64,000 bases of DNA, taken from Lingula anatina (Eukaryota; Animalia; Brachiopoda). The translations under genes and the position numbers were made by a program. The notes under the pieces are model-generated. The model saw nothing but the letters and a program-made list of their open reading frames with translations. It did no database searches and was not told the origin of the DNA. Shown one piece after another: positions 4,493 to 53,814 of this stretch; the stretch's first letter is position 1; every line of letters begins with the position of its first letter. The stretch lies in contig CM120643.1 in assembly GCA_051362555.1 (NCBI GenBank), positions 6,138,001 to 6,202,000 on the forward strand, given 5' to 3'.

Positions 4493-4706
4493 CACCCCAT
4501 TCTCATAGATTAGATCGACCTACATAGGATCGACCTAACTCCCTGGGGGTTCACGCTAAATAGCTGTCAGCCGGGCGGACACGAAAGTTAATTACCCCTT
4601 ATAGCTTGTAGTAGGCGGGGTGGACACTTAAGGCGGATTATCTGACAGTAATCTAGTGAGACTCCCCGCGGTGATAGATCGATCTAAAAGTTGTGAGAAC
4701 AGAGCC
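4493..4706 (+). mobile_element. ~215-bp PIF/Harbinger (Tourist-like) MITE, family copy 1
   Basis: Inserted in the 62-bp unit with an ATT duplication (4490-4492, 4707-4709). Shares CCCTGGGGGTTCACGCTAAA...TAATTACCCC...CTAGTGAGACTCCCC..GATAGATCGATCTAAAA with the copies at 43494 and 56771. Confidence 0.85.
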
Positions 4707-5033
4707 ATTGTGTTCCATTGTGGCAGTATAGTCCTGTGCCTCCTAGTACAGTGTAGTAGTCTGGAGTCATTGTGTTCCATTGTGGTAGTATAGTCCTGTG
4801 CTTCCTAGTACAGTGTAGTAGTCTGGAGTCATTGTGTTCCATTGTGGCAGTATAGTCCTGTGCCTCCTAGTACAGTGTAGTAGTCTGGAGTCATTGTGTT
4901 CCATTGTGGCAGTATAGTCCTGTGCCTCATAGTACAGTGTAGTACAGTGTAGTGTGGAGTCAGATGATAAACTGGAAAAGACAAAAAAGTCAATGACCAG
5001 GGTTTTTCCTCAAGATCCAGAATATTAGACTTA

Positions 5034-6516: not shown

Positions 6517-9500
6517 TAATTGTACCACCAGCGTTAGCGCTGGCGGTACACATGGTTTCGGTCCCGTCCGGATCGTTCCGCCGGCTCCGTTGGCTCCGCC
6601 GGCTCCGCCGGACGGCTACCGTTACCGCTTCTCCTCCTAGACGGTAAGGGCCCCCATACCCATCTCATGGATTTAGGTCACCTATAATCTCAACTCGTTC
6701 CACGTAAAATTTGGGCTTTGTCGGTATTGGGGTCTGGGTGTGGCACTCATTGCAATGCACCCTTGTCTAAAAATGGCAAAATTAAATGCTAATTATCTAC
6801 CCTACGGAAGGAGTTATGGGAAAAATTTCTATAGACGGCTTTCCAAAAGTCATATGTGTAGATTTCAAATATACCCTTGGATTTGACCTTTGACCTCTAC
6901 TTCAAGGTCAAATGGGCCAAAATTTTCAAAAAAATGAAATTTTTTATGAAAAAAAATTTTTTTGCCCTGTTATTCAGACACCACACAGACTTAACCAATA
7001 ATATTATTGGAAAGTGTTACCCTTCAGGTCATCTTTCATCTCCATGAATTTGGGGTCAATCGGTGCATTTTCACAGGAGTAGCGGCCATAAGATACCGAA
7101 ACTGAAAACTGTCTCTAATTCGGGAACCGTTAATGCTAGAGACCCATTCTTTTTTGCATTTTGTAGAGCATGTAAAGCCCAACACTGAAAGTGGTCTCGG
7201 TTTTTTTGTATTCCATACGGTTTTCGAGTTACGCTGTATCAAAAAGTACATATTGGTGGTAAAAGCAAAATGTGCAGTACGGTAATGGATAATAAATTTT
7301 GAACTCTGGAAAAATAAAACATAAGGCTTGGCAAAGCAGACAACTTGTGTTCAAAAATGACATTATTTCATCAAATTTGAACTTCTGAAACTTCAGATCA
7401 CCTCCTATTTCAAGAATTTTGACCAAAATGACATTTTCTTTATTTTAATTAATTTTTTTCTGTACGAAATTTAAGGCACATTATGGTAACTCCAAAATTA
7501 TAACATCTAGTCCCTTATATCTCCAAAACTGGCAGAGATAGGTCCATAGTTACTATTGCAGTTGAATAGGAAATCATATACTGGCAATCTTACTATGACC
7601 TTGAAATTGACCTTTGACCTACTTTTCACCATGAACTGAACTTTGCAAATTTTTCTTCCCTTTTATCTCCAAAACTGGCAGAGATAGGTCCATAGTTACT
7701 ATTGAACTTGAATAGGAAGTCATATACTGGCAATGTAAATGTGACCTTAAAATTGACATTTGACCTACTTTACACCATGAACTGAATTTTGCAAATTTTG
7801 CTTTCCTTTTATCTCCAAAACTGGCAGAGATAGGTCCATAGTTACTATTGAACTTAAATAGGAAGTCATATACTGGCAATCTATATGTGACATTAAAATT
7901 GACCTTTGACCTACTTTTCACCATGAACTGAATTTTGCAAATTTTGCTTTCCTTTTATCTCCAAAACTGGCTGAGATAGGTCCGTAGTTACTATTGAACT
8001 TGAATAGGAAGTCATATACTGGCAATCTAAATGTGACCTTAAAATTGACCTTTGACCTACTTTTCACCATAAACTAAACTTTGCAAAATTTGCTTCCCTT
8101 TTATCTCCAAAACTGGCAGAGATAGGTCCATAGTTACTATTGAACTTGAATAGGAAGTCATATACTGGCAATCTAAATGTGACCTTAAAATTGACCTTTG
8201 ACCTACTTTTCACCATGAACTGAACTTTCCGAATTTTTCTTCCCTTTTATCTCCAAAACTGGCAGAGATAGGTCCATAGTTACTATTGAACTTGAAAAGG
8301 AAGTCATATACTGGCAATCTAAATGTGACCTTAAAATTGACCTTTGACCTACTTTACACCATGAACTGAATTTTGCAAATTTTGCTTTCCTTTTATCTCC
8401 AAAACTGGCTGAGATAGGTCCGTAGTTACTATTGAACTTGAATAGGAAGTCATATACTGGCAATCTAAATGTGACCTTAAAATTGACCTTTGACCTACTT
8501 TTCACCATAAACTGAACTTTGCAAATTTTGCTTCCCTTTTATCTCCAAAACTGGCAGAGATAGGTCCATAGTTACTATTGAACTTGAATAGGAAGTCATA
8601 TACTGGCAATCCAAATGTTACCTTGAAATTGACCTTTGACCTACTTTTCACCATGAACTGAACTTTGCAAACTTTTCTGCCCTTTTATCTCCAAAACTGG
8701 CAGAGATAGGTCCATAGTTACTATTGAACTTGAAAAGGAAGTCATATACTGGCAATCTAAATGTGACCTTAAAATTGACCTTTGACCTACTTTACACCAT
8801 GAACTGAATTTTGCAAATTTTGCTTCCCTTTTATCTTCAAAACTGGCTGAGATAGGTCCATAGTTACTATTGAACTTGAAAAGGAAGTCATATACTGGCA
8901 ATCTAAATGTGACCTTAAAATTGACCTTTGACCTACTTTACACCATAAACTGAACTTTGCAAACTTTTCTGCCCTTTTATCTCCAAAACTGGCAGAGATA
9001 GGTCCATAGTTACTATTGAACTTGAAAAGGAAGTCATATACTGGCAATCTAAATGTGACCTTAAAATTGACCTTTGACCTACTTTACACCATGAACTGAA
9101 TTTTGCAAATTTTGCTTTCCTTTTATCTCCAAAACTGGCAGAGATAGGTCCATAGTTACTATTGAACTTGAATAGGAAGTCATATACTGGCAATCCAAAT
9201 GTTACCTTGAAATTGACCTTTGACCTACTTTTCACCATGAACTGAACTTTGCAAACTTTTCTGCCCTTTTATCTCCAAAACTGGCAGAGATAGGTCCATA
9301 GTTACTATTGAACTTGAAAAGGAAGTCATATACTGGCAATCTAAATGTGACCTTAAAATTGACCTTTGACCTACTTTACACCATGAACTGAATTTTGCAA
9401 ATTTTGCTTCCCTTTTATCTTCAAAACTGGCTGAGATAGGTCCATAGTTACTATTGAACTTGAAAAGGAAGTCATATACTGGCAATCTAAATGTGACCTT

Positions 9501-10161
9501 AAAATTGACCTTTGACCTACTTTACACCATGAACTGAATTTTGCAAATTTTGCTTTCCTTTTATCTCCAAAACTGGCTGAGATAGGTCCGTAGTTACTAT
9601 TGAACTTGAGTAGGAAGTCATATACTGGCATTATAAATGTGACATTAAAATTAACCTTTGTCCTACTTTTCACCATAAACTGAACTTTGCAAATTTTGCT
9701 TCACTTTTATCTCCAAAACTGGCTGAGATAGGTCCATAGTTACTATTGAACTTGAATAGAAAGTCATATACTGGCAATCTAAATGTGACCTTGAAATTGA
9801 CCTTTGACCTACTTTTTATCATGAACTGAACTCTGCTAATTTCTTTCTCTTTTAACTTCAAACTTGACAGAGATAGGTCCATAGTTACTCTTGAACTTGA
9901 ATAGGAAGTCATATACTGGCAATTTACTGTGACCTTGAAATTGACCCTTGACCTACCTTACGAAGAACTTAAATTTGATTGTACCATATATATTTTTTGC
10001 AATAGTTAAAAAATTCTTGTTGATTGCATTTTTACAGCTTGTCAAGCACAAAACTGGTGGCTGTGTCCCTTATTTTGTGTATGTGGGGGTCTATACGAAT
10101 GCGTTTGCTCCAGCTGGTGGTACAATATTTGGAGGCGGTATCGCCTCTCTGATCCTCTAGT
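6517..10161 (+). mobile_element. Non-autonomous Helentron/Helitron2 (HINE) carrying a 146-bp tandem array
   Basis: 5' sub-terminal repeat ATTGTACCACCAGC with an adjacent inverted copy (GCTGGCGGTACA) and (CTCCG/GTCC)-rich microsatellite. 3' subTIR GCTGGTGGTACAAT (10113-10126), hairpin GAGGCG-GTAT-CGCCTC (10132-10147), and terminal CTAG followed by a T run. This is the canonical HINE layout. Confidence 0.85.
7513..9955. repeat. 146-bp satellite-like tandem array (~16-17 copies)
   Basis: The unit CCTTTTATCTCCAAAACTGGCAGAGATAGGTCCATAGTTACTATTGAACTTGAATAGGAAGTCATATACTGGC...TGACCTTTGACCTAC recurs every 146 bp. Spurious ORFs at 8641, 8787 and 8933 are spaced exactly 146 bp apart. Confidence 0.97.
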
Positions 10162-10928: not shown

Positions 10929-11027
10929 AGTGATCAATTTGAATGTCTGTAGTGTAAATATCAAAAAGATATATTGATAGGATTTCTTTCTGTTTTATTT
11001 TATTTCTTCTTTTTATTTTTATCAGCC

Positions 11028-13274
11028 ATGGCCACAGTCAGAATTGTTTTAAAAAACAATTTATTGAAAGCAAAAGTGGTGGGCAGGGGAACTGCCCTCG
11101 GGGGATGGGACCCCCAGAAAGGTGTGAACCTGTCAAGGTTCACTGATATGGGGGTCCCATCTCTCAGGTCAGAGTTTCTCCTGCCCAAGGGCTCAAATAT
11201 AGAATGGAAATTCATTAAGCCACAAAATGTAAGTATGAGACTTTTTTTTTTTTTTTTTTTTTTTTTACAAAAATAATGATCTCAGGTAAAAATGATTTTC
11301 TTTAAAATTGAAAAAGAAAATTTAAAGTCTGATACATTTAAGTACTTATTAAAACCTTCATTCCTTTCTTCTAGTGTATTTGATTTATCAGTGATTGTAT
11401 ATATTAGTAAACATTTTATTTTTCAGTTTAGACATTAACATATCTTTAAGTTATTTATTTGTTTGTTTTTTCATTCATTCATTCATTCTTTAAATTTATT
11501 CAGCCTTACCACCCTGGGTGTGGCTGGACATGGGAGCCTGAACCCTTTAGGAACAGGTGCCTCCAGGTGACCACTAAGGACAGCATGGAAGTGACCTGTA
11601 CTTGGGGAGAACTGGACATGGAAATAAAAGGTGCTTGAACTCATAATTCTCGTAACCTTTTAAATCTGTCATGTACAACATTTGGAAATAAAAGATTACT
11701 TGATCTCACTATCCTATAAAAAAAACTGTAGAAAAATGATGAAATGGTCCTTTAATATTGTCAAATACATTAAAGACTTTATTTTAGTGTATATCATAAC
11801 TTGTAAATAATAAATAAATGTGCCATCTTATTCCAGAGTGGGACTACATGTACAAGCCTGAAGTCCACACAAGTGGTAAGTCCACACCATTGCTCTATTC
11901 AATCAACTTGACACATTTTTTATCTTTTAGGAAGGATTCATGAAATAAAATTACAACAACATCTTGACACTCAGGGTGCAAGTCTGGACCCTCAGGGGCT
12001 GTTGGCAATGGATTTGGAGACCTAGCTAATGTGCACTAACTCCATGGAAACTCTCACTGAATACAATCAGATTAACAGACTAACATGCTTCTTTTTGTCT
12101 CCAACATACTCCAACATAACTCACATAAATGGTATTACTTAAAATTCAATTCTGTTCTTTCAGGTGATACCAGAGAAGAGAATAATGTAGCAATTGTTAA
12201 GACCCAAAGCATTGAGGAATTAGGTAAGGCTGGAATCATAGTAAAATAATAACATTCATCATCATCATCATTTAGAGCCTATAGTGTTCCACTGTTGGAC
12301 AAAGGCCTCAGCATGCTTTTTCCATTGTTTCCTATCCTGAGCCTCAGATTTCCAGTTTGGCCAAGGTTTCTTCTTCCAAGACTTCCAGTAGTCATCTAAT
12401 TCATCCCTCCATCGTTTGACTGGCCTTCCTCTTTTTCTTTGTCCAATAATAACATTATGAATTTTAATATACTTGCACACACACATACACTAACAAACAC
12501 ACATACACATGCACATACACACCACAAGCATGTTGCTTATGCAAAGTCTATTTTTTAGCATACTTATGAAGATAATTTATTTATTTTTAAGTTAGTTAAA
12601 TCTTTGAATGTGTCTTCATCAAAGTGTAATGGGCCTACTGGATCCTTTTTGAACATGCACAGATATGGAATGTTAAGTTTGTATTTTTAAATTATAAAAT
12701 ATTATTAAAATATCATTTTTTTCTTTAGCTGATATCAAAGACACAAAGAGTGTGTCAGATGCTGAGGGCAGCGAGGAGAGAGGTAAGACAGTAAGGTCAA
12801 TTTAACAGGTGTTCATTTAACACACTTAAAAAATTTACACACACACAAACAGGCTTTCAGACACAAACAGGGGCAAATTGAGGCTGTCTTCTGGGTCTTC
12901 CGCAAGGTGGTTAGAAGTTTACATTGATGGGGATTTAATTTTTTGTCAGAAGACAGTCCACAATGGAGGATGGATCAACAAGTATAATTTGCAAGACTGT
13001 CAGAAAATCTCTCAAGACCCGCCCCTTACAAACATTGTGTTTTTATTCCCTGTTCAGTGATCTAAATCTTTGAATACATCTTTGAATATGGTATTGAATC
13101 CTTGTTGTGCATGGGCATGGAATGTTGAATTTGTGTTCCATTTTTTCCTTCAGTTGATGTCAAAGACACAACAACTACTGTGACAGAGCTCGTGAAGGAG
13201 AGAGGTAAGATAGAATAGAATAGGTCAATAGAACAGGTATCAATTTATGACACTGATGACATGTGATTGTGCAT

Positions 13275-13316
<42 letters not shown>

Positions 13317-14509
13317 AAAGGCACTGTACTTGCATGCACAAGCAAAGTCTGGCCTTTGACATATTTAAGAAGATACTTTATCTTCTGAAAATTAATGTTT
13401 TTGTTGTGTAAAGATTGAACACACATAATGTTGATCTGAAAATTCAATTTAATTCTGTTCTTTCAGTTGATACCAAACTGAAAGACAAGTACAATGTAAC
13501 ACCTGTAAACCCACTAAGTATGGAGGAGATAGGTAAGAGAGGAATCTCAGTAAAATAGTTATATGACTTATAATATACTGTACTTATGAAACATGCATGC
13601 ACACACACACATACACTTACAAACACACATGCACACACACACACACACACCACAAGCATGTTGCTCAAGCAAAGTCTTTAGCATAATTAAGAAGATAATT
13701 TATTTTTAGTCATTTAAATATTTGACTATGTCTTCCATAAATTGTAATACTGAATCCTATTTGAACATGCACAGATATGGAATGTTAAGTTTTTATTCGA
13801 TATCATTTTTCCTTTAGCCAATATCAAAGACTCAGAGATTGTGTCAGATGCTGAGGGCATCAAAGAAAAAGGTAAGACAATAAGCTTAGGACAATCTAAC
13901 GGGGAATTAATTTAACACACTTAAAAATGTAAACACACACAGATGGACTTTAGGGAGGAGACTCTCACACACAAACACTCAATGCAAATTCACTGTTCAG
14001 TGATCTATGTCTTTGAATGGGTCTTTGACTATGTTAAATAATGTATTGAATTCTTGTTGTGCACAGGTATGAAATGTTTAATTTGTTTTCCTGTCTTTCT
14101 TCAGTCAGTATCAATGACGCAACAACTATGAAAGCAGACGTGAAGGAGAGAGGTAAGACAGTAGGGTCAATAGAATAGTAGGGTCAATATTTATTACACT
14201 GATGGAATGTGATTGTGCATGTACACACACGCACACACACACACACTCCTTATGTTGTGCCAACACGGTTTGTGCTTTTGGCAAGTTTAAAATAACATTG
14301 GCAAAATTGTTTATTCCAAATACTGTTAAAAGTGTTTCGTTGAGGCTTCATACATGAAATATGATGTTGCACTGATTTATTGAACATTTTATACTTTTGC
14401 CTCTTAGTAAGTATTATACATTTCAGCTCCAAAGAATCGCCGCCAATCTAGGTGGAGGAGGGTATTGAATTTGTTCACGTCTTGCTTCAGACGGAGTGCA
14501 CGAACATAA
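11028..14509 (+). CDS. CBM20 (starch/glycogen-binding domain) protein with micro-exon-encoded acidic repeat tail, ~260 aa
   Basis: Exons 11028-11228, 11504-11630, 11837-11875, 12164-12223, 12729-12782, 13154-13204, 13467-13532, 13818-13871, 14105-14152 and 14427-14509. All are AG/GT bounded and phase-compatible, totalling 783 nt with no stops. The N-terminus has CBM20 motifs VVGRGTALGGWDPQKGVNL...LPKGSNIEWKF...WTWEPEPFRNRCLQV...CTWG. AATAAA signals lie at ~14933 and ~14956. Confidence 0.85.
12257..12444 (-). mobile_element. 5'-truncated RTE-clade LINE 3' end
   Basis: Encodes GQRKRGRPVKRWRDEL...WKSEAQDRKQWKKHAEAFVQQW (RTE ORF C-terminus) followed by a (TGA)n tail. It has a 12-bp TSD AATAATAACATT at 12245-12256 and 12445-12456. 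Confidence 0.88.
12869..13027 (-). mobile_element. hAT-like MITE (CAGGGGCGGA-type ends), ~160 bp
   Basis: Reverse-complement match to 15529-15686 and 19365-19535. Ends AGGGGC...GCCCCT, with near-duplicated flanks (ACAAAC). Confidence 0.65.
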
Positions 14510-19992: not shown

Positions 19993-22490
19993 TATAATTC
20001 CAATGAAGCTGCTATTCAAACCTTTAATCTTCGAGTTTATATATATATAAAAATTAAATTTTCACAAAAAACTGTTTAATTGCCAGAAAAATTTACCAAA
20101 CAGACTGCATTGCCTACTGAAGCTATATTTTAGTCCCATTTCTTTCCTGTAAGTTTGAGAACAGTGAGTGACATGATTTTCCTTAAATGGTCATCATGGG
20201 AGCAGTGCCCAAAATAGGGGTTTCTTCAAATTTTGATGCAATATTACATAATGTTTAACAGCATAATGACCATCAATTATTAATAATAAAATATTAGTAT
20301 CATGGATATTCAGAAAATGTGACTAGCAAAGGTCTTCAGGCCCATGGAACTTCAAAGTCACATCTTGAAAATGCCAAAATGTAAACAAGACAGAACTTTT
20401 CTGAAATGGGTTTATTTCCATTTTTAACACTTTTTTAACATAAAACAAAATTAACAGTTTACTGCCATTTTTATATGACCAACTAAGAAAATTGATGAGA
20501 TGGGAAAAATATCAATAGAACAGTGTTAAATGTCCAATTTCCTCCATTCTGAGATTCTGAACATAGTGGATGATTGAATCTGACAAACTGCAATGATATG
20601 TGTTTATTTCCATTTTTGACACTTCATTACACAATACACGATACCATATTTACCATCATTTTTACATAATCAACTGACAATGTTGTAAAGATGCAGGAAA
20701 TGTCATACAAACACTTTTACGTATCTTATTAGTTCAATAATGAGACTATTAACATACCTAAGAATTGAATCTGAGGAAACGTGAAAAAAAAGCATAACTT
20801 CTAAAATAATGGCCCGATTATGCTGATTTTCATACTCAAGCTATGTTTTAGTAAGATTGACCACTCCTGTGAGCACAATGACAATTGGCCTATCTGTTTT
20901 TCTTATATTGTGTTATCAGTGTTGCATATATGCTGAAAAAAATGAAAAAAACAGCATAACTTCCATAAAAGTGGCTCTATCATGCTGATTTTTTAACTTG
21001 ACCTGCGTATTATAAATACTCATCAGTTCTGTAAGTTTCAAACCAAAAAGTAAAACCGTTTTCCACTTATCGTGTTTACGGTGTTGCATATATGCTGAAA
21101 AAAGTGAAAAAAAAAAGCATAACTTCCCTAAAAATGACCCGATCATGCTCATTTTCAAACTTGACCGGTGTATTATGAATATTCATCAGTTCTGTAATTT
21201 TCAAGCCAAAAGGTAAAACGGTTTTCCACTTATCGTGTTTACAGTGTTGCATATATGCTGAAAAAAGTGAAAAAAAAAGCATAACTTCCCTAAAAATGAC
21301 CCAATCATGCTGATTTTCGAACTTGACCTGCGTATTATAGATATTCATCAGTTCTGTAAGTTTCAAACCAAAAGGTAAAACTGTTTTCCACTTATCGTGT
21401 TTACGGTGTTGCATATATGCTGAAAAAAGTGAAAAAAAAGCATAACTTCCCTACAAATAGCCCGATCATGCTCATTTTCGAACTTGACCAGCGTTTTATA
21501 AATATTCATCAGTTCTGTAACTTTCAAGCCAAAAGGTAAAACGGTTTTTCACTTATCTTGTTTACGGTTAAAGTGCACGCCAAAGGCGACGGCGACGGCG
21601 ACGGCCCCAGCTACAGCGACGGCGATGACAGACGCAGATGACGGCTATATGTACAGACACATCTGTGTCTGTACATAAACGTGTATCCAGTACAGCTAGT
21701 TGAAAGAGCTTCATGTCAGATCTTTGAAAATGGCTTTACCAGTACTTCATAGAAAATGGCTTTTGTTAATAATATATGACATTTCAAAAAATGTATATAT
21801 GAGTTACCATTGAGAAAGGAAAATGTTGCAGATTATTGTTACTATAGTCAGATGAAGATATGACTTTTGATTTCCAGTTAATGTGAACAGTGATCTTGGT
21901 CACTGATGTTAACATGTTTATGACGTAATTTTTTTCTAATTGAAATGCAATTTAAAAGTATTGTAAAGGACTAGAAATTGTATTGTTGTAATAAAAAATG
22001 CAGATACCTTACAGAGGGCAACAGATGGGAATAGATTTTGATTATACTGTATGAAATAAAAAATCTGATGAAGAGGTGTTAGGATAGGACTTTTTTTTTA
22101 ACGAATGTTTAAGTTGATGGTTGATACTGAGTATAACATAATCAGGTATAAAGTATAGAATATATTTCAGTCTGTTTATTAAATTGTTCAACCAACTGGG
22201 TTTTTTCTAGGATTTCCATAGCTTGACTACTTTTTTAAAACGAAAGATTGGTTTTATTCAAATTCGAAATAAACTTAAACAAGCATAATTTGTCATGATT
22301 ATCCATGAAACTTTTGTCTTCTTTTGCAAACTTGTATTCTAATATCTAAAAACATGAGGGTCAGTAAAAGAAAAAGAAAATTCAGAAAATACTCACAAGG
22401 CAGATTTTATTATCACAAATCATTGAAGCTATTTTTAAAAAATGTCTATTTGAAAGTGAATGAGATCATAAATGGCAGTATTTATTAATA

Positions 22491-23623
22491 AAACAAGGCA
22501 GCAAAGCTGTCAAATGTACAGACAAAATAACAGAAAAAAGGATGCAAAAGAGGTCATTTTGCCAATTTTGATGCAATAATAAACAAGACCGTGGAACTTC
22601 AAAGTCACACTTTGAAAATGCCAATATGTGAAACCGTTTAACTGGCAGTAAGAATTACCAAACAGACTGCATTGCCTACTGAAGCTGTATTTTAGTCCCA
22701 TGTTTCTTTCCTGTAAGTTTGAGAACAGTAAGTGACATGGTTTTTCTTAAATGGTCATCATGGGAGCAGTGCCCAAAATAGTTTTTTTTTTTTTTAATTT
22801 TGATGCAATATTACATAATGTTTAACAGCATAATGACCATCAATTTTAATAATAAAATATTAGTATCATGGATATTCAGAAAATGTGACTAGCCAAGGTC
22901 TTCAGGCCCATGGAACCTCTAAGTCACAACTTGAAAATGCCAAAATGTAAACAAGACAGCACTGTTCTGAAATGTTTTTTTTTTCATTTTTAACAATTTT
23001 TAACATAAAACAAAATTAACAGTTTACTGCCATTTTTATATGATCAACTAAGAAAATTGATGAGATGGGAAAAATATCAATAAAGCAGTGTTAAATGTCC
23101 AATTTCTTCCATTCTGAGATTCTGAACATAGTGGATGATTGAATCTGACAAACTGCAATGATATGAGTTTATTTCCATTTTTGACACTTTATTACACAAT
23201 ACACGATAACAAGTTTACCATCATTTTTACAAAATCAACTAACAATGTTGTAAAGATGCAGGAAATGTCAAACAAAAACTTTTATGTATCTTATTAGTTT
23301 AATAATGAGACTGTTAACATGCCTAAGAATTGAATCTGAGGAAATGTGAAAAATATGCTGAAAAGTGAAAAAACAGCATAACTTCTACAATAATGGCCCG
23401 ATCATGCTGATTTTCGAACTTGACCTGCGTTTTATGAATATTCATCAGCTCTGTAAATATAAAGCCAAAAAGTAAAACTGCCTTCCACTTATCGTGTTTA
23501 CAAGGAAAGTGCACGGCGACGGCATCGGCATCGGCATCGCCATCGGCATCGGCATCGGCATCGGCGACGACAGACGCAGGTGATGGCAATATGTACAGAC
23601 ACATCTGTGTCTGTACATAAAAA
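22491..23623 (-). mobile_element. Non-autonomous Helentron family A, copy 2
   Basis: Same termini as copy 1 (AAACAAGGCAGCAAAGCTGTCAAATGTACAGAC ... ATGTACAGACACATCTGTGTCTGTACATAAAAA), with a (GGCATC)n microsatellite. ORF 23323..23604 (ADADAD) is its translation. Confidence 0.85.
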
Positions 23624-23905
23624 GGAGATTCTGATCACATTATTTGCACTGTTGCAATGTATTAAATAGTAAGGCAGTATGTTTGTCTATAAAAACACTT
23701 CTAATCCATAAAAAATTTAAAAGGACAAAGTTCAATACAAAATATTTTCATGATTTTTAATATTTTTCTTTAAATCATAAACATGGCATAGTTTTGCAAA
23801 GGGGATATGAGACCTCCATGAGTCTGTTTGATAAAAGTTCTTGCACTATTTCTGGAATTATATCACTTAGTAAAAGGTTCCACTGGCAAAAGAGCACTGA
23901 GTTTT

Positions 23906-24781
23906 TTAAAACTTAACAAGCTGTTTCTTCTCCTGCCTGTGAGCATCCTCTCCAGCCTCATTTGATGAGAAAAGTAGGCAGTAACCATACACACAAACTG
24001 CCTTCAGTGTCTGGAACACCAATAAGTCCTCCACCAGTGCCACTCCTACCAGAGCAGCCCAGTTGTACACAGCGCTGTCACTCAGCTCTCCACCATACAC
24101 AATGCTGAGATATACTGCCATAGCCATGGAGACGACCAGCAAAATGAATGCTGGATAGATCAAAAAGTGGGGCAACTTTCCGTCCTGCTTTCTGTTGACC
24201 ATCATCTCCAGCGACTTCAGCTCAGTGTATGGCACCTCATCTGATAGTTCTGGAACATTTTGTGTGGAAATGAATTATTGCCAAAAGTATGTGGAAGTTT
24301 AACTACAAAATGATGCCGGCTAATATTACCCCTGTTTAACATCACAATCACTGTTTTAATTATAATAAGGGCAAGGAAGCTTATGTTGGAATCAATGCTC
24401 TAAATATCTTCAAAATGTAAGCTGAAGCTGGATAACATGAAAATGCATTATCCTTTTTTTATATATTCATTCCTTTTTAAAATAATTTACTGAAATGACA
24501 GACATTGATGATACCAAAATGGACAATTACCTTCCCAAATATTAACTGCTACATCATGTGCATTGTCTTTCCTCTTGCTGTTGTCTAAAATTGCATTAAA
24601 CAAGGGATATGTAAAGGGAAATATAAAAAGTTATTTGTTTGAGCCATATATTGCTACTGTTGTACATAAATTAGGAAACAGTAAATCAAAATTTTAGGAT
24701 GTTACATCTGTTCTACGCTATCAAAAAGGATTAAAAAACATCATCATATAGACATGTCTACAGCATAATATAATGGCATAC

Positions 24782-24820
<39 letters not shown>

Positions 24821-27800
24821 TACCTGGGATGAGAAAACTTGGGTTGAAGTGAGCAATGAGACTGTAAAAAGATGCAACATCTGCATTTCTGTAGCTGGAA
24901 ATCTTCCCAGCATGGGATTTTGGGATTTCTGCCTGCATCTCCTTTTGCATATTAGAGTTTAGCCTAGGGTTGTTAGGAGGAGGAGCATATGTGTAGCTGA
25001 GTGTTTTCTGAAATATTGAAAATCATCCAATAATTGATTCTGCTGACTGGTTAATATAGTCAAAATATTCCACAGATGGGGACATTTATTCTGGTGGTGG
25101 TTTGATATTGCACTATAATACCTCAATATTAGTATAATGTCTTTTTATGTTCTTAGTATATGTATATGTGCTTATAAGTCAAGCCAAATATATTGTCAAA
25201 CATTACAGGAATGATACAAGTGTCTGTTTTTACATGTATGTCTCAAAGGCAATCCATGATATCTGTACAGGCACATACATGCATGCACAAACTAAAAATA
25301 GAAAAAAAGTAATAAATACCTCTTTCTTGCTGTCCACATCTCCCATGGCAACCATATCTTCCTTGACAACCAAATTTTCCTTGGCAACCATTTCTTCAAT
25401 CTGTGCCATAGCCTGGTGTTCAACAGTTGCACGTGCCAAATCATAGTCCTTCTCAAAGTCATAAGCCACCTGTTTCATCATGGTCTCCACACTTCCATGC
25501 ACAACTTGTTGAAACCCATCACTGATTGTGCAACTGCAAATAAAAAAAACAAACTAATTAATGAATATTTCTTCAATCAAGAAATGTTGCCAAGAATTAG
25601 TATTATTGGTAGAATAACACTCTGACTATAGTTACTAACTCCATTTACACACTCAGAACATGTGTCACATTAGCAAGAAAATGTGAAATCATTTCATTAC
25701 TGTGAATATTAAACTCAAATGAAATAGTCTATGAAATGAAACAAGTGTCCAGCCCCATACAGAATCAGTCATGGCTATGAGCAAGACCTGTGGTCAACTC
25801 CCAAAACTAAAGACAAATTTAACTTTATTCCAACATAACTGTGAAATGAGGAGTCTTAAAATGAACACACAAAATAAACTGTCTCCTTACATGTCATCAT
25901 ACTGAGGCTCATCTTCCAGGTTCTGCAGCATGGTGTCACCAGTGTCCTCTCTGTCATAGCACCTGATATTGTACATTGCTACATCATATATGCCATTCAC
26001 AAGGAATGTTCCTATATTGACAAGGAGGCTGGAGAGGAAGATACCTCTATCAAGCTGAATGACACCAACAGCACTGAGAAGGATACTGGTAAGCAGCATG
26101 TTTGCAAACATGTAGTTCAAGGTGCTGTTAAACCACAGAAGGACAGGGGCCAGCTTCAAGCTGGAACAGCGTGTCCATCCATGACAAGACCACAAATACA
26201 GAAGGCAAGTTTGCAGTCCAAACCTGAAAAATATTTTAATAAATTAAAAAATGTATATCAAATATCAAAGTACAGACATTTTACATGAAAATTACTACGA
26301 GTACATTCCATGTTGAAGAAAAACTGAATACTACATTAAAAAATCAGAATATGTATCATTATTATTATTATCTTTCATATTTTATTTGTTGATAACTTGT
26401 CAAAGCAGACATTTCAAAGTACATCATATGCTTATTTATCAATTGTGAGAAAGTCTCCAACTTACCTGTAGTTCTTACAAGACTTCAAAGTGGTGTATCC
26501 CACTGTGAGGCATCCATTGCTGCTGAAGTGGGATTCACAGCCAGATACTGTATCATATACTGTTATATCCAGCACATTCCTTCAATGAAAGAAAAATAAT
26601 AATAAAAATTCACTCAAATTTCTTTATACAAAATATGTAAAAATATCTACTATAAATAACATAACAATATGAATATAAGTTAAACTACAGATGCATCCAA
26701 GGTATTCAAGACACAAAGCATATTTCAGAACAATGACAAAAATAATCTTCATTTGATTTGCAGAACTTTCTTTATACAGGTCCAATAGTGTAAATATGTT
26801 TGTGATGTTCCAGTTTGTATTTTTAAAATTACCATTGAGCTCCTGGTCTATCACTGATGTACACCACAACCTTCTTCAGTTTTCCCAGGGACTCTGAGTT
26901 TAAAATAAAAAAGATTCACTATAATGATTAAATGTTAGTGTGTTGTTTTAGAGTACAACATGCATCAAATATAACAGAGTTGTAGTTTAATTCTAAAAAT
27001 AAATTTAGTTAATGCATAACAATACCATAAGAACCCTGTTTTACAAATCACCAAGAATTCTTGCACTAACTCTCTCTGAACATGCTCTGCACTTAACTTT
27101 ATGATAAAAAGTCAACATAACTTAGTTAACATGATACTTTAAGTAATAGTAATCAAATATAATATAGCCACTGACTGAGATGAACAGCAAACTGGGACCT
27201 GATGTTCCAGTTAAGACTGTACATGCTGAATTGAATGTAATAAAGTAAATGGCAGTTAGCTGCTAATAATACTGTTGAATCAATATTTGCAGGAAAAGAA
27301 ATTTATATGTGCGCCAAAATATTCAAGATACTCACCTTTTGTATACAAAAGAAACCATTTCTTCTGTCCTACCCCAAGGAAATTGTGCTTCCTCCCACGT
27401 TCATTCAGATTATATTCAGGAGATACCCCCTGGTCTCCTATCAACTGCAATCTGACTTTGGGTGTCTTTACTGCTACAAAACAACATATTTCTATAGTTT
27501 GGAATAAATACAGTTAAATAACAACTTCAACAATTATATAACTGTAAGACTCGCCTATATTTCTATTTCTATTTTTGTCATTTATTAAAATATATTATTA
27601 TTATTATTTTCTTTCACACAATGATAACTAGTTTAAGCTTTTCAACAAGGATCAGAATCAACAACTTGAAAGATCTTAGCATCACTTTTACCTCTTTTCA
27701 GCCCATTTTGAACTGCTACCATGTATCTATAGTGATGTTCACCAGAATATTTGGGAACAACTATGATACCACTCTGCTTTCTCTGAAATGATAATGACCA

Positions 27801-28358
27801 CTATAATTATAAGACAAAGGAAAAGAAAGGAAATGAAAGGAAAGAAATGTAAATATAAAACAATAATGTTATGAAAATGATTACAGCAGAAACAAAGTAA
27901 TTTCCAGTTCTTCATCATAATTACCTATTTTATATTTTAAAGTTATCTAACACAGAAATTCATAAGAGATAACTGTTTTTATACTTTCATGCAGACTAAA
28001 TTTAAAATGTACAACACAAAATTTTGTTTCAGTACCTTCTTCCAATCGAACCAAATAATATAACTTGTGCTGAGTAACATTATGCCCAAAAACGCAAAGA
28101 TGAATACAAATGTGAGTTTGTGGTACACCATGAACTTTTGTGGAGCTTTTTTCAAGGCAAAAGCTAGCAAAGAAAAGAAAGGATGTAGCTTAAAAATGGA
28201 AAGCAAGGAAGCAACCAAGGGCAAAGAGAAGTATAGAAAAACACGATTAATTTAAATGAATATAAAAAAATAGAGAAAGTAGGGTCTAATGAATTAGTCT
28301 CAAACAAAACAAAACAATAACACAAAGTAAGATGCTGAATGCATGGAACTTTGACAAA

Positions 28359-28391
<33 letters not shown>

Positions 28392-28586
28392 CATCACAAT
28401 TTGTGCTAAATGAATGGTGAAAAAACATTGGTTCCCCGTGAGTTGTTTTAATGTATATCGCCTGCTTTGTAAACAAGAAAGGTGCAAAAGAGTTACATAA
28501 GTCTATAGTTTGATGATATACTTACCTCCATGGAGAGGTTGCATGAGTAGCAACATCAACAAAACTTTGATCTTCAAGTTCTTCAT
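23906..28586 (-). CDS. Truncated polycystin-1 (PKD1)-family protein: signal peptide, TM1, PLAT/LH2, TM2-5; ~555 aa
   Basis: Exons 28586-28526, 28163-28036, 27782-27692, 27473-27336, 26893-26833, 26579-26466, 26223-25891, 25533-25320, 25007-24824 and 24249-23906. All are GT-AG and phase-compatible, totalling 1668 nt with no internal stop. Signal peptide MKNLKIKVLLMLLLMQPLHG; TM1 ending ...IIWFDWKK; PLAT motifs YRYMVAVQNG...KVRLQLIGDQGVS...FLLYTKESLGKLKKV...WNVLDITVYDTVSG...F; PKD1-type TM4-5 LPHFLIYPAFILL...IVYGGEL...NW...EDLLVFQTLKAV. Confidence 0.85.
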
Positions 28587-28729
28587 ACTGGCAATTTTTT
28601 ATATGTTCTCCCTGTATCAAATAATATGAAGCCGTGTACAACAAACACGTATATTTAAAAAAGAAGTCGCGATTCAGCGAATAAACGAGAAATTATCGAT
28701 ATTTCAAACAATTTGGACGGAGTTGACTT

Positions 28730-28800
28730 TGACTTCCGCCCAAATCTCACAAATGTCTGTTGCTAATTGACGTCACAGACACAATCAGCTCACGTGACCA
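28730..28800 (-). promoter_or_regulatory. Putative promoter of the mini-polycystin gene
   Basis: About 150-200 bp upstream of the ATG are an ETS-like ACTTCCG (~28732), an RFX-like half site GTTGCTAA (28759), a full CRE TGACGTCA (28768-28775) and an E-box TCACGTGA (28790-28797). Confidence 0.55.
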
Positions 28801-28994
28801 TTGTGCTGGGATGTGCGTTAAAACAGCCAAATCGATAAAACAATAATAGTTATAAATAACATTCACCTTGATTGGGGCTTTAATAAATTACTTTAAAGAG
28901 GATAAGTATGGTTTATGTTATTTTTCGTATTTGTTTGAATATATGCATATAGATCTACTTAAATAGAAGACAGAGGAAGACTGGCTACGCTAAG

Positions 28995-29217
28995 CAGGGG
29001 CGGATCCAGGATTATTTGAAGAGGGTGTCCGCGGATGCGAAGTCGAGCCCCCCGCCCTTTGGCGTGGGTTCGGGGCCTGCTGAAGATCCCCGAAAAAATG
29101 TTATTTTTTGAGGGCAGACGGTGTCATTTGGTATTGATTGAAATTATGATTCAGCTAGTCAAAATTCTAATTTCAGGAGGGGATCATTGGTGTGATTTTG
29201 TTACAGAAATTGAAAAA

Positions 29218-29262: not shown

Positions 29263-29837
29263 GAATAAAGGTTAGACATGAATCTCAGCAATATTATTAT
29301 TACTTAAATACATATCTGAATCCTGCACATGTGCACACACACACACGCGCGCACTGGTATATGCACACTATATTGCAGAGCACAATTTAGCCTTTGACAC
29401 AAGAGCTCCGAGAACTGGAGTAGTTTGCAATGGATGTCAACGTAAGCGACGCAGATGTGTCAACCTCATCCACCAGATCCAAAGGCGTTCCAAAATGAGC
29501 CCAACACACTTAAAAACATGTCATACAAAGTTTAAATACCTCTACTGAGTATGTAAAATTCAACAAGTATGTAAAAGTCAAGATTTCGTCGCTGTCAGTC
29601 ACAAGCAGGTACCTCTGTCTAAACGGCCTTGACCTATAATCATATTATTTCACTAGAGTCTATGCCAATCTAAGTGTGCATATATTTAATTTTATTTCTT
29701 CACCATGATTTTCTGTCGCAAAAGATGTCCTAAATAAATAACTAACCACACTAGAATGACTTTATTTTCTAGTTTGATATGAGTGTGGTTTGTGTGACTT
29801 CATTGAGGTGGGTAACAGTTAAGACAATTCCTTTTTG

Positions 29838-30213
29838 AACGGTGACAAGTGGGTCGAGTCCATTCGATTTGAGAAGTTACAGTTAGGACGAGTCCATTCT
29901 ATTTGAGGGGTAACAGGTAGGGCGAGTCTATTCCATTTGAGGGGTTGCAGGTGGGGCGAGTCCATTCCATCTGAGGGGTGACAGGTGGGCCAAGTCCATT
30001 CTTTTTGAGGGGTGGCAGGTGGGGTGAGTCCATTTCATCTGAGGGGTGACAGGTGAGGCGAGTCCATTCCATTTGAGGGGTGACAGGTGAGGCGAGTCCA
30101 TTCCATCTGAAGGGGTGACAGGAGGGACGAGTTCATTTCATCTGAGGGGTGACAGGTGGGGCGATTCCATTCTTTTTGAGGGGTGACAGGTGAGGCGTGT
30201 TCGTCCGATTTGA
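29838..30213. repeat. ~34-bp minisatellite (~10-11 copies)
   Basis: The unit GAGGGGTGACAGGTGGGGCGAGTCCATTCCATCT repeats and degenerates toward the left end. Confidence 0.9.
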
Positions 30214-32257
30214 GGAGCGCATGCACGTAAAATCACCACAAAATTACATTATAATGTCCGTGCAATTAACTTTATAAAATATATTTTTTTAAATATTGTG
30301 TTAGCAAAGTTTTGGGGGGATATAAACTTGTATCATGCAGAATTAATCATAAAATTATTGGTCTTAAAAATTTGCTTTTCCACAATTTCATATAAATATA
30401 ACCTTTTTGTCGGTACATTTGTGACTGTGTAGAAATTAATCTACATCACAAAATTAAATTAAGGGATCAATATATTTAAAACATTTTTTTTAAAGAAGCC
30501 AGTTTCAACTGTTGCCATTTCAAGTGTCTCTCAACTTTCTCATTTTTTCCGTTTAAATTTTAAATTTAAGTATTCATATGATAAGAAGATCGTGAAATTT
30601 AAATCAATTTTCTGCAACAATAACCAGAATCCTTCAAAAATGGACCCATATTAAAATTGAGAGAATGATATCCGGGAGGACGTATTCATTTATTCCAAGA
30701 AATATAAAACAACTATCTAACTACAGAATAAAATACAGAATAGCTTTTCAAAAAGCAAAATCGTAAATTCACACATATTGTATTTATAAATGTGGGCTGT
30801 TGGAAAATCTTGAACGTGTATTCTTAAAATGCTCAAACTCAATAATTTACAAAATACTAGGAATATTTACTAACTTTTTAAAAAAAGCTTTTGGTTTTAG
30901 ATATCTTCTGTTACTGCAGAAATCAACAATCCCAAACACAATATTTACAGATCAGTTTTAGCGGATAAAATTCGAAAGTGCTCAAACATATGAATAGTTA
31001 TCATACCTTTATTATTACCACTATTTTTATCGACATCATTTCATATCAAAGTTAAAGAAACAAGCAATGACAAACTTATCTATCCAGCTTTTATTAAAAT
31101 ACAATAGTTGCATGAATTTGCGTTTGGTTCCAGAAAGTGAATGAAAGGCTTGGTTGCTAGCAGGCGGGTGTTGTGCAGTACTCAGTATCTCAGCTGACTT
31201 CTGAAATGAGAAAGTAATGTAATACAATATTTGACTAAACGGGCAGACTTGGAAAATACAACAAATGCATTTTACATCAAAGAAAAGAGGGTGCTTGAAA
31301 TGATGTGGGTGTTTACTGACTTGTCAGATGTTCAGGCTCAGATAGCACCCCTCAAAAAACCAATCTACATCGTGGTGACCTTACGCCAAAATTAAGATCT
31401 GAGGTTATTGATAAAGATACGGTATTTGAGATTTCTTGCTTTGAAAAAATAAACATTGAAAACAATTCTTTAATTCGTGGAGGTTATTACTAAGGACGTT
31501 AATTTATTTTACCTACTATTCAATGTTGTAATATCGAAAATCGCTATGCAACACGCGTTTGTGCGTCATATTTTGACCATAAAATTGATGTACACGTTGA
31601 TAGGGCACACTTGTCTTTGGACCAAAAGCTCAGAACTGTGGCAAGTACAGTATTATCATCTAAATTAGTCCGTGATTTTTGTGGTAATATTCCCATTTAC
31701 TTTTAAGCTAGCTTATATTCTGAGTGACATAAAAGAAACGACAGGCAAAACATAACAAAGAATCGCAACATAAATACTTTTTAACGTAATTTTCCTTGCA
31801 TTCTTTCACGCTTTGTATATCTACTGACTAAGGTTACTGAAGAAAAAATGATACTTACGGGACATGCATTTGTGTCTTCGCCTCATAAAAGTTCGACCTT
31901 GCAGCTGTACCACACATGCTGTTGCCTCTTCACCCTGATGTGTCCTACTGCCTAGTGAGCATTGGGGAAGACAGCTCGCACTACGATGAGCAACTTATTG
32001 TTATGCAAATTACAGACAGGTATGGCCCATTTTAGGTGAGGGACTGTGGCTGGAACTGTTCACGAATGTTCACTGCCAAAATCATGTATATGAAGATTTG
32101 ACTGAGGTCCACTTGTTGTTAAAATACACCACTTTATTCCACAAATATAGCGCATGCATCTTTAATCATGCGGTTTGATTCAACACTTCCACAAAACTCA
32201 ACGCCAGGGAAAGAGAATGCTGATAGTGGCGGATTTAGAGGGGGCCAGGGAGGTCGT

Positions 32258-34800: not shown

Positions 34801-37800
34801 AAACAAGGCAGCAAAGCTGTCAAATGTACAGACAAAAAGCAGGAAATAACTATGCACAAAATAGGCTACTGTCAATTCTGATGCAAAAGTACATTATGTT
34901 AAACTGCAAATTCAACATCAAATTTTAATTATGCTCAACAGGTAATACCAATGTAAGTAAAATGTGTAACAAGCATAAGGCTTCAGGCCCATGGCAGTTC
35001 AAGTTCACACTTTGAAAATGTATAACTTCCAGAAAAAGAAGCCAATTAGACTGCTTTTCCAACTCAGGCTGCATTTTAGTCCTGTTTTTCTTTTTTGAAC
35101 GTTTGGCAATCATCAGTAACATGGTTTTCCCAGAATGGTCATCATGGCAGCAGCACCCAAAATTGTGTTTTTCTTCTATTCTGATGCAATATTACATAAT
35201 GGTTAACAGCATAATGACCGTCAATTTTTAATAATAAAATATACGTATCATGCATTTTCAGAAAATGTGACTAGCATGGAACTTCAAGCCCATGGAACTT
35301 CAAAGTCACACCTTGAAAATGCCAATATGTGAAAAATTAAATTTTCACAAAAAAAACTGTTTAACTAGCAGAAAGAATTACCAAACAGACTGCATTGCCT
35401 ACTGAAGCTGTATTTTAGTCCCATGTTTCTTTCCTGTAAGTTTGAGAACAGTAAGTGACATGATTTTTCTTAAATGGTCATCATGGGAACAGTGCCCAAA
35501 ATATTTTTTTTTCCAAATTTTGATGCAATATTACATAACGTTTAACAGCATAATGACCATCAATTTTTAATAATAAAATATAAGTATTATGGATATTCAG
35601 AAAATGTGACTAGCAAAGGTCTTCAGGCCCATGGAACTTCAAAGTCACAACTTGAAAATGCCAAAATGTAAACAAGACAGCACTGTTCTGAAATGTTTTT
35701 TTTTTTCATTTTTAACACTTTTTAAACATAAAACAAAATTAACAGTTTACTGCCATTTTTATATGATCAACTAAGAAAATTGATGAGATGGGAAAAATAT
35801 CAATAGAACAGTGTCAAATGTCCAATTTCCTCCATTCTGAGTTTCTGAACATAGTGAATGATTGAATCTTACAAACTGTAATGATATGAGTTTATTTCCA
35901 TTTTTGACACCTTATTACACAATACACGATAACAAGTTTACCATCATTTTTACAAAATCAACTAACAATGTTGTAAAGATGCAGGAAATGTCAAACAAAC
36001 ACTTTTACTTATCTTATTAATTAAATAATGAAACTGTTAACATGCCTAAAAATTGAATCTGAGGAAATGTGAAACAAGACAGCACTATTCTGAAATGGGT
36101 TTATTTCCATTTTTAACACTTTTTTAACATAAAACAAAATAAACAGTTTACTGCCATTTTTTTATGATCAACTAAGAAAATTGATGAGATGTGAAAAATA
36201 TCAATAGAACAGTGTCAAATGTCCAATTTCCTCCATTCTGAGTTTCTGAACATAATGAATGATTGAATCTTACAAACTGCAATGATATGAGTTTATTTCC
36301 ATTTTTGACACCTTATTACACAATACACGATTACAGGTTTAACATCATTTTTACTTAATCAACTAACAATGTTGTAAAGATGCAGGAAATGTCAAACAAA
36401 CACTTTTACGTATCTTATTAATTAAATAAAGAGACTGTTAACATGCCTAAGAATTGAATCTGAGGAAATGTGAAAAAACAGCATAACTTATAAAATAATG
36501 GTCCGATTATGCTGATTTTCGAACTTGACCTGCGTTTTAGTAAGATTGATTACTCCTGTGAGTTTCATGACAACAGGCCTATGGGTTTTCCTTGAAATGT
36601 GTTAACAGTTTTGCATATATGCTGAAAAGTGAAAAAACAGCATAACTTATAAAATAATGGTCCGATCATGCCGATTTTCGAACTTGACCTGTGTTTTAGT
36701 AAGATTGATTACTCCTGTGAGTTTCATGACAACAGGCCTATCAGTTTTCCTTGAAATGTGTTAACAGTGTTGCATATATGCTGAAAAGTGAAAAAAACAG
36801 CATAAATTCTACAATAATGGCCTGATCATGCTGATTTTCGAACTTGACCTGCGTTTTATGAATATTCATCAGCTCTGTAAATATAAAGCCAAAAAGTAAA
36901 ACTGTCTTCCACCTATGGTGTTAACGCTGAAAGTGCACGGCAACATGATTGGCGACGGCGACGACAGACGCAGGTGATGGCAATATGTACAGACACATCT
37001 GTGTCTGTACATAAAAATGTGACTAGCAAAGGTCTTCAGGTCTACGGAACTTCAAAGTCACACCTCGAAAATGCCAAAATGTAAACAAGACAGCACTGTT
37101 CTGAAATGGTTTTTTTTTCCATTTTTAACAATTTTTTAACATGAAACAAAATTAACAGTTTACTGCCATTTTTATATGATCAACTAAGAAAATTGATGAG
37201 ATGGGGAAAATATATTGTTTTGAAATGGTTTTTTTTCCATTTTTAACAATTTTTTAACATGAAACAAAATTAACAGTTTACTGCCATTTTTATATGATCA
37301 ACTAAGAAAATTGATGAGATGGGGAAAATATCAATACAACAGTGTTACATGTCCAATTTCCTCCATTCTGAGATTCTGAACATCATGAATGATTGAATCT
37401 GACAAACTGCAATGATGAGTTTATTTCCATATTTGAAACTCTATTACATAATACACGATAACAAGTTTACCATCATTTTTACACAATCAACTAACAATGT
37501 TGCACAGATGCAGGAAATGTGAAACAAACACCTTTACGTATCTTATTAGTTAAATAATGAGACTGTTAACATGCCTAAGAATTGAATCTGAGGAAATGTG
37601 AAAAAACAGCATAACTTCTAAAATAATGGCCCGATAATGCTGATTTTCGAACTTGACCTGCGTTTTAGTGAGGTTGATTACTCCTGTGAGTTTCATGACA
37701 ACAGGCCTATCGGTTTTCCTTGAAATGTGTTAACAGTGTTGCATATAAGCTAAAAAGTGAAAAAACAGCATAACTTCTACAATAATTGCCCAAACATGCT

Positions 37801-38021
37801 GATTTTCGAACTTGACCTGCGTTTTATAAATATTTACCAGCTCTGTAAATATAAAGCCAAAAAGTAAAACTGTCTTCCACTTATCGTGTTAACGATGAAA
37901 GTGCACGGCGACGGCGACGGCGACATCGACGGCGACAGGGACGGCGACAGGGACGGCGACGGCGACGACAGACGCAGGTGATGGCAATATGTACAGACAC
38001 ATCTGTGTCTGTACATAAAAA
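34801..38021 (-). mobile_element. Helentron family A, copy 3, with a duplicated 5' half (35601-37017 and 37014-38021)
   Basis: One 3' terminus at 34801 and two 5' termini (ATGTACAGACACATCTGTGTCTGTACATAAAAA at ~36985-37017 and ~37989-38021). Both duplicated blocks begin AAAATGTGACTAGCAAAGGTCTTCAGG. Confidence 0.85.
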
Positions 38022-48155: not shown

Positions 48156-48414
48156 CAGGGCGGCAGTGCCCAAAATAGAGTTTTCTTCAATTCTGATGCA
48201 ATATTACATAATGCTTAACAGCAAAGTCACCACCAATCTTAAACAATGCACTGCAGGAAACATGGATTCTAATAAATGTGACTAGCTAAGGTTTTCAAGC
48301 CCATGAGATTTCTAAGCTACACAATTTCTAAGCTAAGATAGATAGATATATCTGATATAACTGTACTGAAATAAGTTTCTTTCCATTTTCAACACTTTTT
48401 TTTACATAAAACAA

Positions 48415-53747: not shown

Positions 53748-53814
53748 GATTACATGATTAAAACGTTCCCAGTACTGAACACGTCCATGGCCTCCACCTC
53801 GACCACGAGGCAGT

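Follow-up and report, generated by a model that had tools for sequence, protein, structure and literature searches.

A reduced, channel-less relative of polycystin-1 within an unnamed gene family of the brachiopod Lingula anatina

Whether a polycystin-like protein can dispense with both its outer sensor and its channel is the question raised by a gene at positions 23,906 to 28,586, on the minus strand, of a 64,000-nucleotide stretch of the Lingula anatina genome (GCA_051362555.1, contig CM120643.1, positions 6,138,001 to 6,202,000; hereafter the window). The original prediction, made from the sequence without database searches, described this window gene as a stand-alone polycystin-1 reduced to a signal peptide, a first transmembrane helix (TM1), a PLAT domain and TM2-5. 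Here, we show that the window gene resembles the N-terminal membrane domain of polycystin-1 yet does not qualify as a canonical family member, for want of GPS, REJ and channel, and that it is the most reduced channel-less form we found, within an unnamed Lingula family. We put it slightly above an even chance that its product is a channel-independent membrane scaffold.

The window gene is a genuine spliced gene. Rebuilding the ten predicted exons on the minus strand gave AG acceptors and GT donors throughout and 555 codons plus a stop, with no internal stop; GC content was 0.44 in exons (0.50 at third codon positions) and 0.28 in introns. The predicted exons, splice sites and open frame stood, except that an eleventh exon of 54 nt had been overlooked: four reads of run X1 cross the joint 24531/24249, two paralog models include the exon, and the resulting 11-exon frame comprises 573 residues with one stop. 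Reads came from four of nine runs (X1, X4, X7 and X9) and were mapped down to position 23600, the tables of loose ends and joints being truncated and dominated by a repeat. Hydropathy peaks fit a signal peptide at residues 6-24 and five helices at approximately 39-57, 235-255, 258-277, 474-493 and 501-535.

On the minus strand, exon 1 (28526-28586) encodes a predicted signal peptide and ends in a phase 1 donor, and exon 2 (28036-28163) a predicted short outer stub with TM1. PLAT starts in exon 3 (27692-27782) and continues in exon 4 (27336-27473), both recovered by the rebuild, the paralog models and a canonical profile, with reads on each (X1 depth ~2 on exon 3). Exon 5 (26833-26893; rebuild, paralog models, alignment and reads) carries the PLAT strand at the canonical WHDN place, and exon 6 (26466-26579), 92-95% identical to paralog models and with zero reads, the PLAT end. 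TM2 and TM3 lie in exon 7 (25891-26223; rebuild and paralog models, nearly no reads) and correspond to helices 162-189 and 196-222, at a predicted local distance difference test score (pLDDT) of ~70-80, in the modelled structure of paralog P0002. Exon 8 (25320-25533) encodes an acidic cytosolic loop with a predicted long helix and is joined by one read in X1 and four in X4 to exon 9 (24824-25007), a read-covered loop segment predicted to be disordered. The added exon (24531-24584) bears the family motif DVAVNI-x-EE, and the terminal coding exon 10 (23906-24249; rebuild, paralogs, profiles and reads) comprises a pre-TM4 helix, TM4, TM5, a 31-residue tail and a TAA stop. The 3' untranslated region (UTR) follows at 23740-23905 (four of four reads at 23889-23890); its end is approximate, with the poly(A)-type hexamer ATTAAA at 23761.

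Profile searches bore out the predicted homology to PKD1. A profile built solely from other PKD1-like proteins, run against 2,924 window open reading frames, matched exon 10 (E 5e-10), exon 4 (E 0.006) and exon 3 (E 0.07); Pfam searches with the individual exons gave nothing useful. A profile of eight family sequences ranked human polycystin-1 first in PDB (6a70_B, E 7.5e-12), the match taking in PLAT and then TM4-5; in that search, TM4-5 was not significant on its own. The family profile was needed because PDB sequence searches with exon 10 alone or P0002 alone gave no real match. Among the known TM1-5 set, TM4-5 of the window gene appear homologous, TM2-3 align by position, and TM1 is putative.

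The gene is not alone, and 'stand-alone' in the sense of unique had to be given up. Exon 10 found three L. anatina RefSeq proteins at 86-96% identity (380 candidates); clusters of those added four and a HMMER library search one more, giving eight near-identical, 'uncharacterized' young loci, P0001-P0008, on eight contigs. None of these is marked as the window locus itself, and some of the eight may be uncollapsed haplotypes. Counting the window gene, the young copies number at least nine. The HMMER search with P0002 (577 residues) returned 28 proteins at E <=0.001, the best after P0008 being P0009 (8e-23) and P0010 (2e-19), with Lingula P0013, P0015 and P0019 amid multi-PLAT and canonical PKD1-like proteins. 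The older Lingula paralogs, 'uncharacterized' or unnamed, include XP_013396612 (P0010), XP_013409301 (P0009), UPI00078A3DE2 (P0040), XP_013418419 (P0015) and XP_013412713 (P0019), and are ~30% identical to the young copies.

Pfam recognized PLAT alone in P0009, P0010, P0013, P0015, P0040 and P0055, nothing in P0019, and no GPS in P0010, P0015, P0040 and P0055, which span signal peptide to TM1. The older paralogs share with the window gene a signal peptide (P0010, P0015, P0040) and TM1, both of them predicted in the window gene, a PLAT without WHDN, TM2-5, LED in TM5, a loop motif and a short tail. They differ in having a Ser/Thr/Pro-rich outer region of 85-330 residues without GPS, bearing R-x-K-R/K sites in two of them, and loops of up to ~1,500 residues, whereas the window subfamily has an outer stub and a 195-residue loop. 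As a separate observation, two amphipathic helical repeats are predicted in the outer region of P0010 and P0015, together with a basic site, R-K-R-V-K-K/R, at which a furin-type protease could cut as a substitute for the missing GPS. A single-sequence fold of P0015, run for an outer fold, was unusable (pLDDT 36).

Two trees (14 and 13 rows, PLAT to TM3 plus TM4-5, with canonical Lingula genes absent from the set) placed young and old members on one side of a branch with 100/100 support; the stem to the young group measures 1.1-1.2 changes per column, and the path from young to old ~2. Derived features run through the whole family: WHDN and TRVQR are lost, TM5 carries LED, FQS of TM5 is replaced, and PLAT is basic. 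A loop motif, D-V-[AV]-[VIL]-[DNQ]-[VI] with mostly acidic residues next, lies 20-45 residues before the pre-TM4 helix in nine of the 11 family sequences that reach this region and is absent from 41,643 residues of other proteins (0.08-0.3% per sequence in shuffles); the loop around it is otherwise unalignable. The window gene's family is accordingly delimited by a PLAT without WHDN, LED in TM5, the loop motif, a tail of <35 residues and a single tree group. The retention of frame, helices and loop motif through such long divergence points to a long-term function.

All family members that reach TM5 stop soon after it. The TAA of the window gene lies 31 residues past QTLK, not the ~25 after the TM5-equivalent first claimed. 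Spliced sense reads of the family run past this stop: X1 sense depth is 3.3 over 23974-24160 and 2.7 over 23787-23973, and four of four reads continue beyond the stop, which agrees with the predicted terminal position of exon 10. Each of these reads differs from the window copy at approximately nine other positions, so that what they attest is a paralog. TM5 is reached by five of the eight young models, of which four end 31 residues past QTLK and one 17, and by four of the seven older sequences (P0009, P0010, P0040 and P0019), which end 22, 22, 23 and 17 residues past the QPLK-type motif; P0013 and P0015 are partial, and P0055 runs off in TM4. Nine family sequences end 17-31 residues after TM5. 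Since reads cross the stop and young and old paralogs end alike, this end is old and common to the family. Word-index searches for longer relatives returned none among 636 candidates, and none among 1,439 in a second search that covered only 3,542-5,000 residues and says little.

The predicted lack of ectodomain and channel exons also held. Canonical TOP-plus-channel and REJ/GAIN profiles found nothing (best E 0.27) and no row, respectively, in the 64-kb window, where small or decayed exons could escape; the same approach with an N-terminal-domain profile does recover exons 10, 4 and 3. The domains sought at the channel end were the TOP domain and the six-helix TRP-like channel (PF20519, PF08016).

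A divergent PLAT, as predicted, is present. Pfam PLAT scored 21.3 bits on P0002 (E 4.5e-4), just below the cut-off of 23, and 42-63 bits on older members. The AlphaFold model of P0002 (21 rows; mean pLDDT 54; predicted template modelling score, pTM, 0.35) comprises a PLAT sandwich at pLDDT 70-90 and four helical membrane segments. VIA structure comparison matched the model to lipoxygenase PLAT with Z 15.3 and a root-mean-square deviation (rmsd) of 2.0; among the 50 structure rows listed, alignment extended past PLAT only with polycystin-1 chains (8zkt_A, Z 12.5, model 26-554 on 3124-3615), with poor geometry (rmsd 14.4). Foldseek put lipase and lipoxygenase PLATs at its top ranks, a ranking that bears on PLAT and not on the helices. 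In an Atlas search with P0002, the top clusters were PKD1-like with PLAT as their sole domain (score 0.92; template-modelling score 0.48; 513 residues, either whole proteins or fragments), and the same search with P0010 gave no usable match. WHDN, which has a role in calcium binding, is gone from PLAT in the whole family, as the original prediction had seen in this copy; its replacement by YISD did not generalize, in that three of the four young models covering the site have NISG, which means that its D has not been kept as a ligand. The family PLAT is basic in five of five members, with 14-19 Lys plus Arg against 8-10 Asp plus Glu, compared with 8-13 against 9-17 in canonical PLAT.

The upstream end is less uniform. 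A likely promoter and 5' UTR occupies 28641-28830 (minus strand), a CpG-rich stretch with a TGACGTCA palindrome at 28768-28775, and X1 sense reads extend over exon 1 and into the bin just upstream (28649-28835); the promoter that had been predicted is thus supported. The observed-to-expected CpG ratio is 1.45 there and 0.13 in the gene body, a pairing that fits the invertebrate pattern of methylated bodies and unmethylated promoters. TGACGTCA, which we take to be of the CRE (cAMP response element) type, occurs three times in the 64-kb window against 0.48 expected (1 of 100 shuffles gets three); its other two sites, 54491 and 54587, are just upstream of a gene at 50924-53846. Young model P0008 starts on exon 1, with identical residues and frame. 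The beginning of older paralog P0015 also resembles exon 1 (z 3.5; 0.4% of shuffles; the highest of three comparisons), a likeness not shared by P0010 or P0040. A reading of exon 1 as a decayed GPS exon was dropped on the absence of a GAIN/GPS match, the P0008 start and the resemblance to the P0015 signal peptide.

Of the predicted signal peptide and TM1, the start in exon 1 is therefore supported by P0008, and exon 2, which would encode TM1, is included in zero reads and zero database models. Five open pseudo-exons of this phase (1 to 0) and size exist in the 64 kb, both strands included, and exon 2 alone among them is TM-like. Its phases fit, and it lies where TM1 sits in P0010, P0015 and P0040; its resemblance to other TM1 regions did not reach significance (eight comparisons, p 0.05-0.41). 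None of the three young models reaching exon 1 includes it: P0002 and P0006 begin M-E and pass to exon 3, and P0008 joins exon 1 to exon 5, losing half of PLAT. X1 depth is ~2 on exons 1, 3, 4 and 5 and 0 on exon 2, a dip that is weak evidence because exons 6 and 7 are nearly bare too. With exon 2 skipped, the signal-peptide frame closes after 34 residues, and a second ATG, 6 nt before the exon 1 donor, opens a frame into exon 3 and PLAT. A TM1-skipping transcript would yield a PLAT-first four-helix protein with unchanged inner topology, and the chances that it is the main form are about even.

Comparison with known systems shows where the novelty lies. The polycystin-1 family (PKD1, PKD1L1-3, PKDREJ; the 11-helix SpREJ3-6) shares with the window gene a PLAT straight after the first helix, TM2-5, the pre-TM4 helix, the TM5 W and the QPLK-type motif. 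In contrast, the window gene lacks REJ (also absent from PKD1L3), GAIN/GPS, lectin, PKD repeats, TOP, S1-S6 and a long tail, and its family departs from the canonical one in the replaced WHDN, TRVQR and FQS and the basic PLAT.

Loss of the channel half is already known, and the claim of an undescribed class was too strong. Teleost and gar pkd1l3 genes, which are without the channel half, have been read as genes being lost, and a zebrafish 'partial' pkd1l3 has 1,083 residues with C-type lectin, GPS and PLAT and no channel domain (PMC5318412). Two amphibian models, P0056 (Pleurodeles, 701 residues) and P0066 (Pelobates, 1,123 residues), have GPS and PLAT and stop 43-44 residues past QPLK with similar acidic tails, and a scallop model, P0031, stops after 84 residues; all three are predicted proteins from database models. 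Fish and amphibian proteins share the missing channel domain with the window gene, and the amphibian pair also its end soon after TM5; they keep GPS (the fish also C-type lectin) and the canonical PLAT and TM2 motifs, which the Lingula family does not. The Lingula family, on a long branch, stands apart from the amphibian models in one tree (97/96) and groups with them without support in another (58/86). Separately, among these PKD1L2-like proteins (P0056, P0066 and P0029), a Pelobates cultripes model fuses the same channel-less unit to a following full-length PKD1L gene, with two GPS and two PLAT, which suggests a tandem channel-less gene beside a canonical one.

In sea urchin, PMC1934368 reports SpREJ7 with six predicted helices and SpREJ1, 2, 8, 9 and 10 with fewer, from full-length cDNAs; these are likewise PKD1-family proteins without channel helices, and the counts given there make SpREJ7 probably the fifth PLAT-bearing SpREJ. 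All of them retain REJ in whole or in part, and SpREJ7 adds a GPS as well as a predicted coiled coil, features not found in the Lingula family. Planarian pkd genes were identified by their channel domain only (PMC11448475). Drosophila PRY/CG30048 was not used as a precedent, its published account giving no domain map. A literature search, with most subscription journals and supplements outside it, found neither the Lingula family nor any form without both GAIN and channel; gene-family tables of the Lingula genome paper may bear on this. New here are the loss of both ends, the basic PLAT without WHDN and the conserved loop motif.

Following PKD1 topology, a signal peptide and TM1 would give PLAT, the tail and the acidic loop between TM3 and TM4 a cytosolic position, so that a ~13-residue stub and two short loops would be all that lies outside the cell. 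The basic PLAT without WHDN would bind acidic lipids independently of calcium, and the conserved DV-x-V/I-x-V/I-(x)-EE motif before TM4 would dock a cytosolic partner, e.g., a trafficking adaptor. Polycystin-1 PLAT binds phosphatidylserine, PI4P and beta-arrestin and controls trafficking (PMC9672506). A match of the loop motif to the Sec24C/D IxM export signal was set aside as a lead only, the consensus M being missing (PMC5007090). With no GPS, the protein would not self-cleave, and it would neither conduct ions nor join a PKD2 tetramer, the known contacts being excluded because TOP, pore and tail are gone. The window copy belongs to a young, dispersed and fast-evolving subfamily that also dropped the Ser/Thr/Pro-rich outer region of older members.

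Beyond the unsupported TM1 exon, several points weigh against this scaffold. The helices of the P0002 model pack poorly (pTM 0.35), the loop motif pattern was derived from the same sequences in which it was counted, and of the eight young database models, six are incomplete or leave out a portion of PLAT. Expression is low, at depth 1-5 in ~12 million X1 records and a few fragments in X4, with no reads on coding exons in X7 and X9. No X1 read is 99% alike to the window copy, and hence most reads come from other copies or alleles. The 15 coding read differences, in 14 codons, comprise 13 replacement and two silent changes (best-supported rows, with 34 rows outside); omega <=0.3 is rejected (P <=0.005), omega 1 is not (P 0.18-0.33), and values of 0.5-1 or more fit. 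Sites shared with old members are weakly less variable in young copies (9/87 vs 42/224, p 0.09; p 0.88 in a second test), and TM4-5 is the most variable region among them (21/68).

These points feed an alternative in which only the older members are functional and the young subfamily consists of transcribed duplicates, spread segmentally or by transposons, under relaxed selection and with no stop yet acquired. Besides the 13:2 ratio, the weak constraint test, the exon-skipping models (P0008 included) and the low expression, it is favoured by the spread of young copies over eight contigs and by a repeat family that abuts the gene's 3' end at 22484-23623 and recurs at 35013-38021. It is opposed by the long stem, over which frame, five helices and loop motif stayed intact, by the whole-codon indels inside exons among young models, and by a frame open from PLAT to tail in three copies (the window, P0002 and P0006). 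Judged by reads, divergence between young copies seems close to neutral; a 13:2 ratio is equally compatible with positive selection, and the set is small, filtered and mixes copies. The original prediction had set an untranscribed gene with a dN/dS near 1 against itself; the young copies indeed show no strong purifying selection, and the old divergence keeps frame and motif. We regard relaxed duplicates as an unlikely but not negligible account.

Less still speaks for the suggestion, also made at the outset, of a split polycystin, in which the five-helix half would pack against a separate PKD2-like or channel-only subunit in trans and so regulate it. The gene ends where the N-terminal domain (TM1-5) of PKD1L3 borders its C-terminal domain (TM6-11; PMC8357825), and the pre-TM4 helix and TM4-5 still align to polycystin-1. 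However, full Ca2+ and acid responses with PKD2L1 are obtained from the C-terminal domain alone (PMC8357825), so that the parts forming channels with PKD2-type subunits are those missing here. The C-terminal coiled coils by which PKD1 and PKD2 associate (PMC1934368) and the TOP domain through which the polycystin-1 stalk signals (PMC9672506) are both absent, the canonical TRVQR before TM2 and FQS in TM5 are replaced family-wide, and the window holds no channel-only gene. The suggestion is improbable. It is very improbable that the model covers only part of a longer, canonical PKD1-like gene with REJ/GAIN or channel exons beyond long introns outside the window: AAG/GC at 24001, right after QTLK, and GT at 23985 score as possible donors, but depth continues across 24001, the stop and the UTR, four young paralogs have the same 31-residue tail and four old sequences end at the same place, a convergent CBM20 gene lies downstream, and exon 1 is a start exon in P0008 at a CpG transition.

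The neighbourhood is otherwise mixed. The convergent gene (11026-14152, plus strand) opens with an exon for a starch-binding CBM20 domain, which passes the Pfam cut-off (E 2.9e-7). Next come six mini-exons, all of phase 1 and 48-66 nt long, apparently three that were duplicated as a set; the gene body is CpG-poor. The gene at 50924-53846 (minus strand) has two long exons separated by an ~80-nt intron near 53035-53114, a further exon at 50924-51065 and no Pfam match; its helical build and last exon are reminiscent of FAST-kinase/RAP proteins. The interspersed repeat family (20049-21679, 22484-23623, 35013-38021 and 48156-49830) has 159-162-bp tandem units with (CGGCAT)n or (ACGGCG)n at one end, lies in the same orientation on both sides of the window gene, and resembles what we take to be Helentron-type non-autonomous elements; it might conceivably have helped to spread the gene copies. 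Tandem arrays occupy 7511-9956 (146 bp), 191-893 (62), 3569-4944 (62) and 29834-30215 (34), and isolated exon-like segments with coding-type codon use, belonging to no assigned gene, lie at 31892-32019 (plus; no Pfam match), 44383-44489 (minus) and 59466-59601 (minus). A short repeat at 28995-29200 has transcripts of both directions in each of the four runs, stemming from many other loci.

The evidence comes from a single genus, the N-terminus of the window gene is predicted only and selection on this copy is ambiguous, all of which limits the reach and interest of the finding. Together with the fish and amphibian proteins, of which the amphibian ones end after TM5, the Lingula family nevertheless argues against dismissing such genes as fragments. 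What TM1-5 with PLAT do alone is left open by the ability of the channel half to work with PKD2-type subunits without TM1-5 (PMC8357825). In a family that has retained nothing but this module through long divergence, nature supplies a deletion construct. The features conserved (pre-TM4 helix, TM5 W and K, loop motif) and those dropped (WHDN, TRVQR, FQS) suggest which serve the module and which the sensor or channel coupling. We tentatively entertain, at a likelihood well under even, that PLAT plus five helices form an autonomous unit freed from the channel several times, in fish and amphibians, sea urchin and brachiopod, of which the Lingula form may be the most reduced: a signal peptide leading straight into TM1 with no sensor, a fast-evolving multi-copy scaffold with a PLAT that binds lipids independently of calcium and a conserved docking motif, plausibly of sperm or ciliated cells and under positive selection. 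If so, vertebrate 'partial pkd1l3' genes would be functional rather than decaying.

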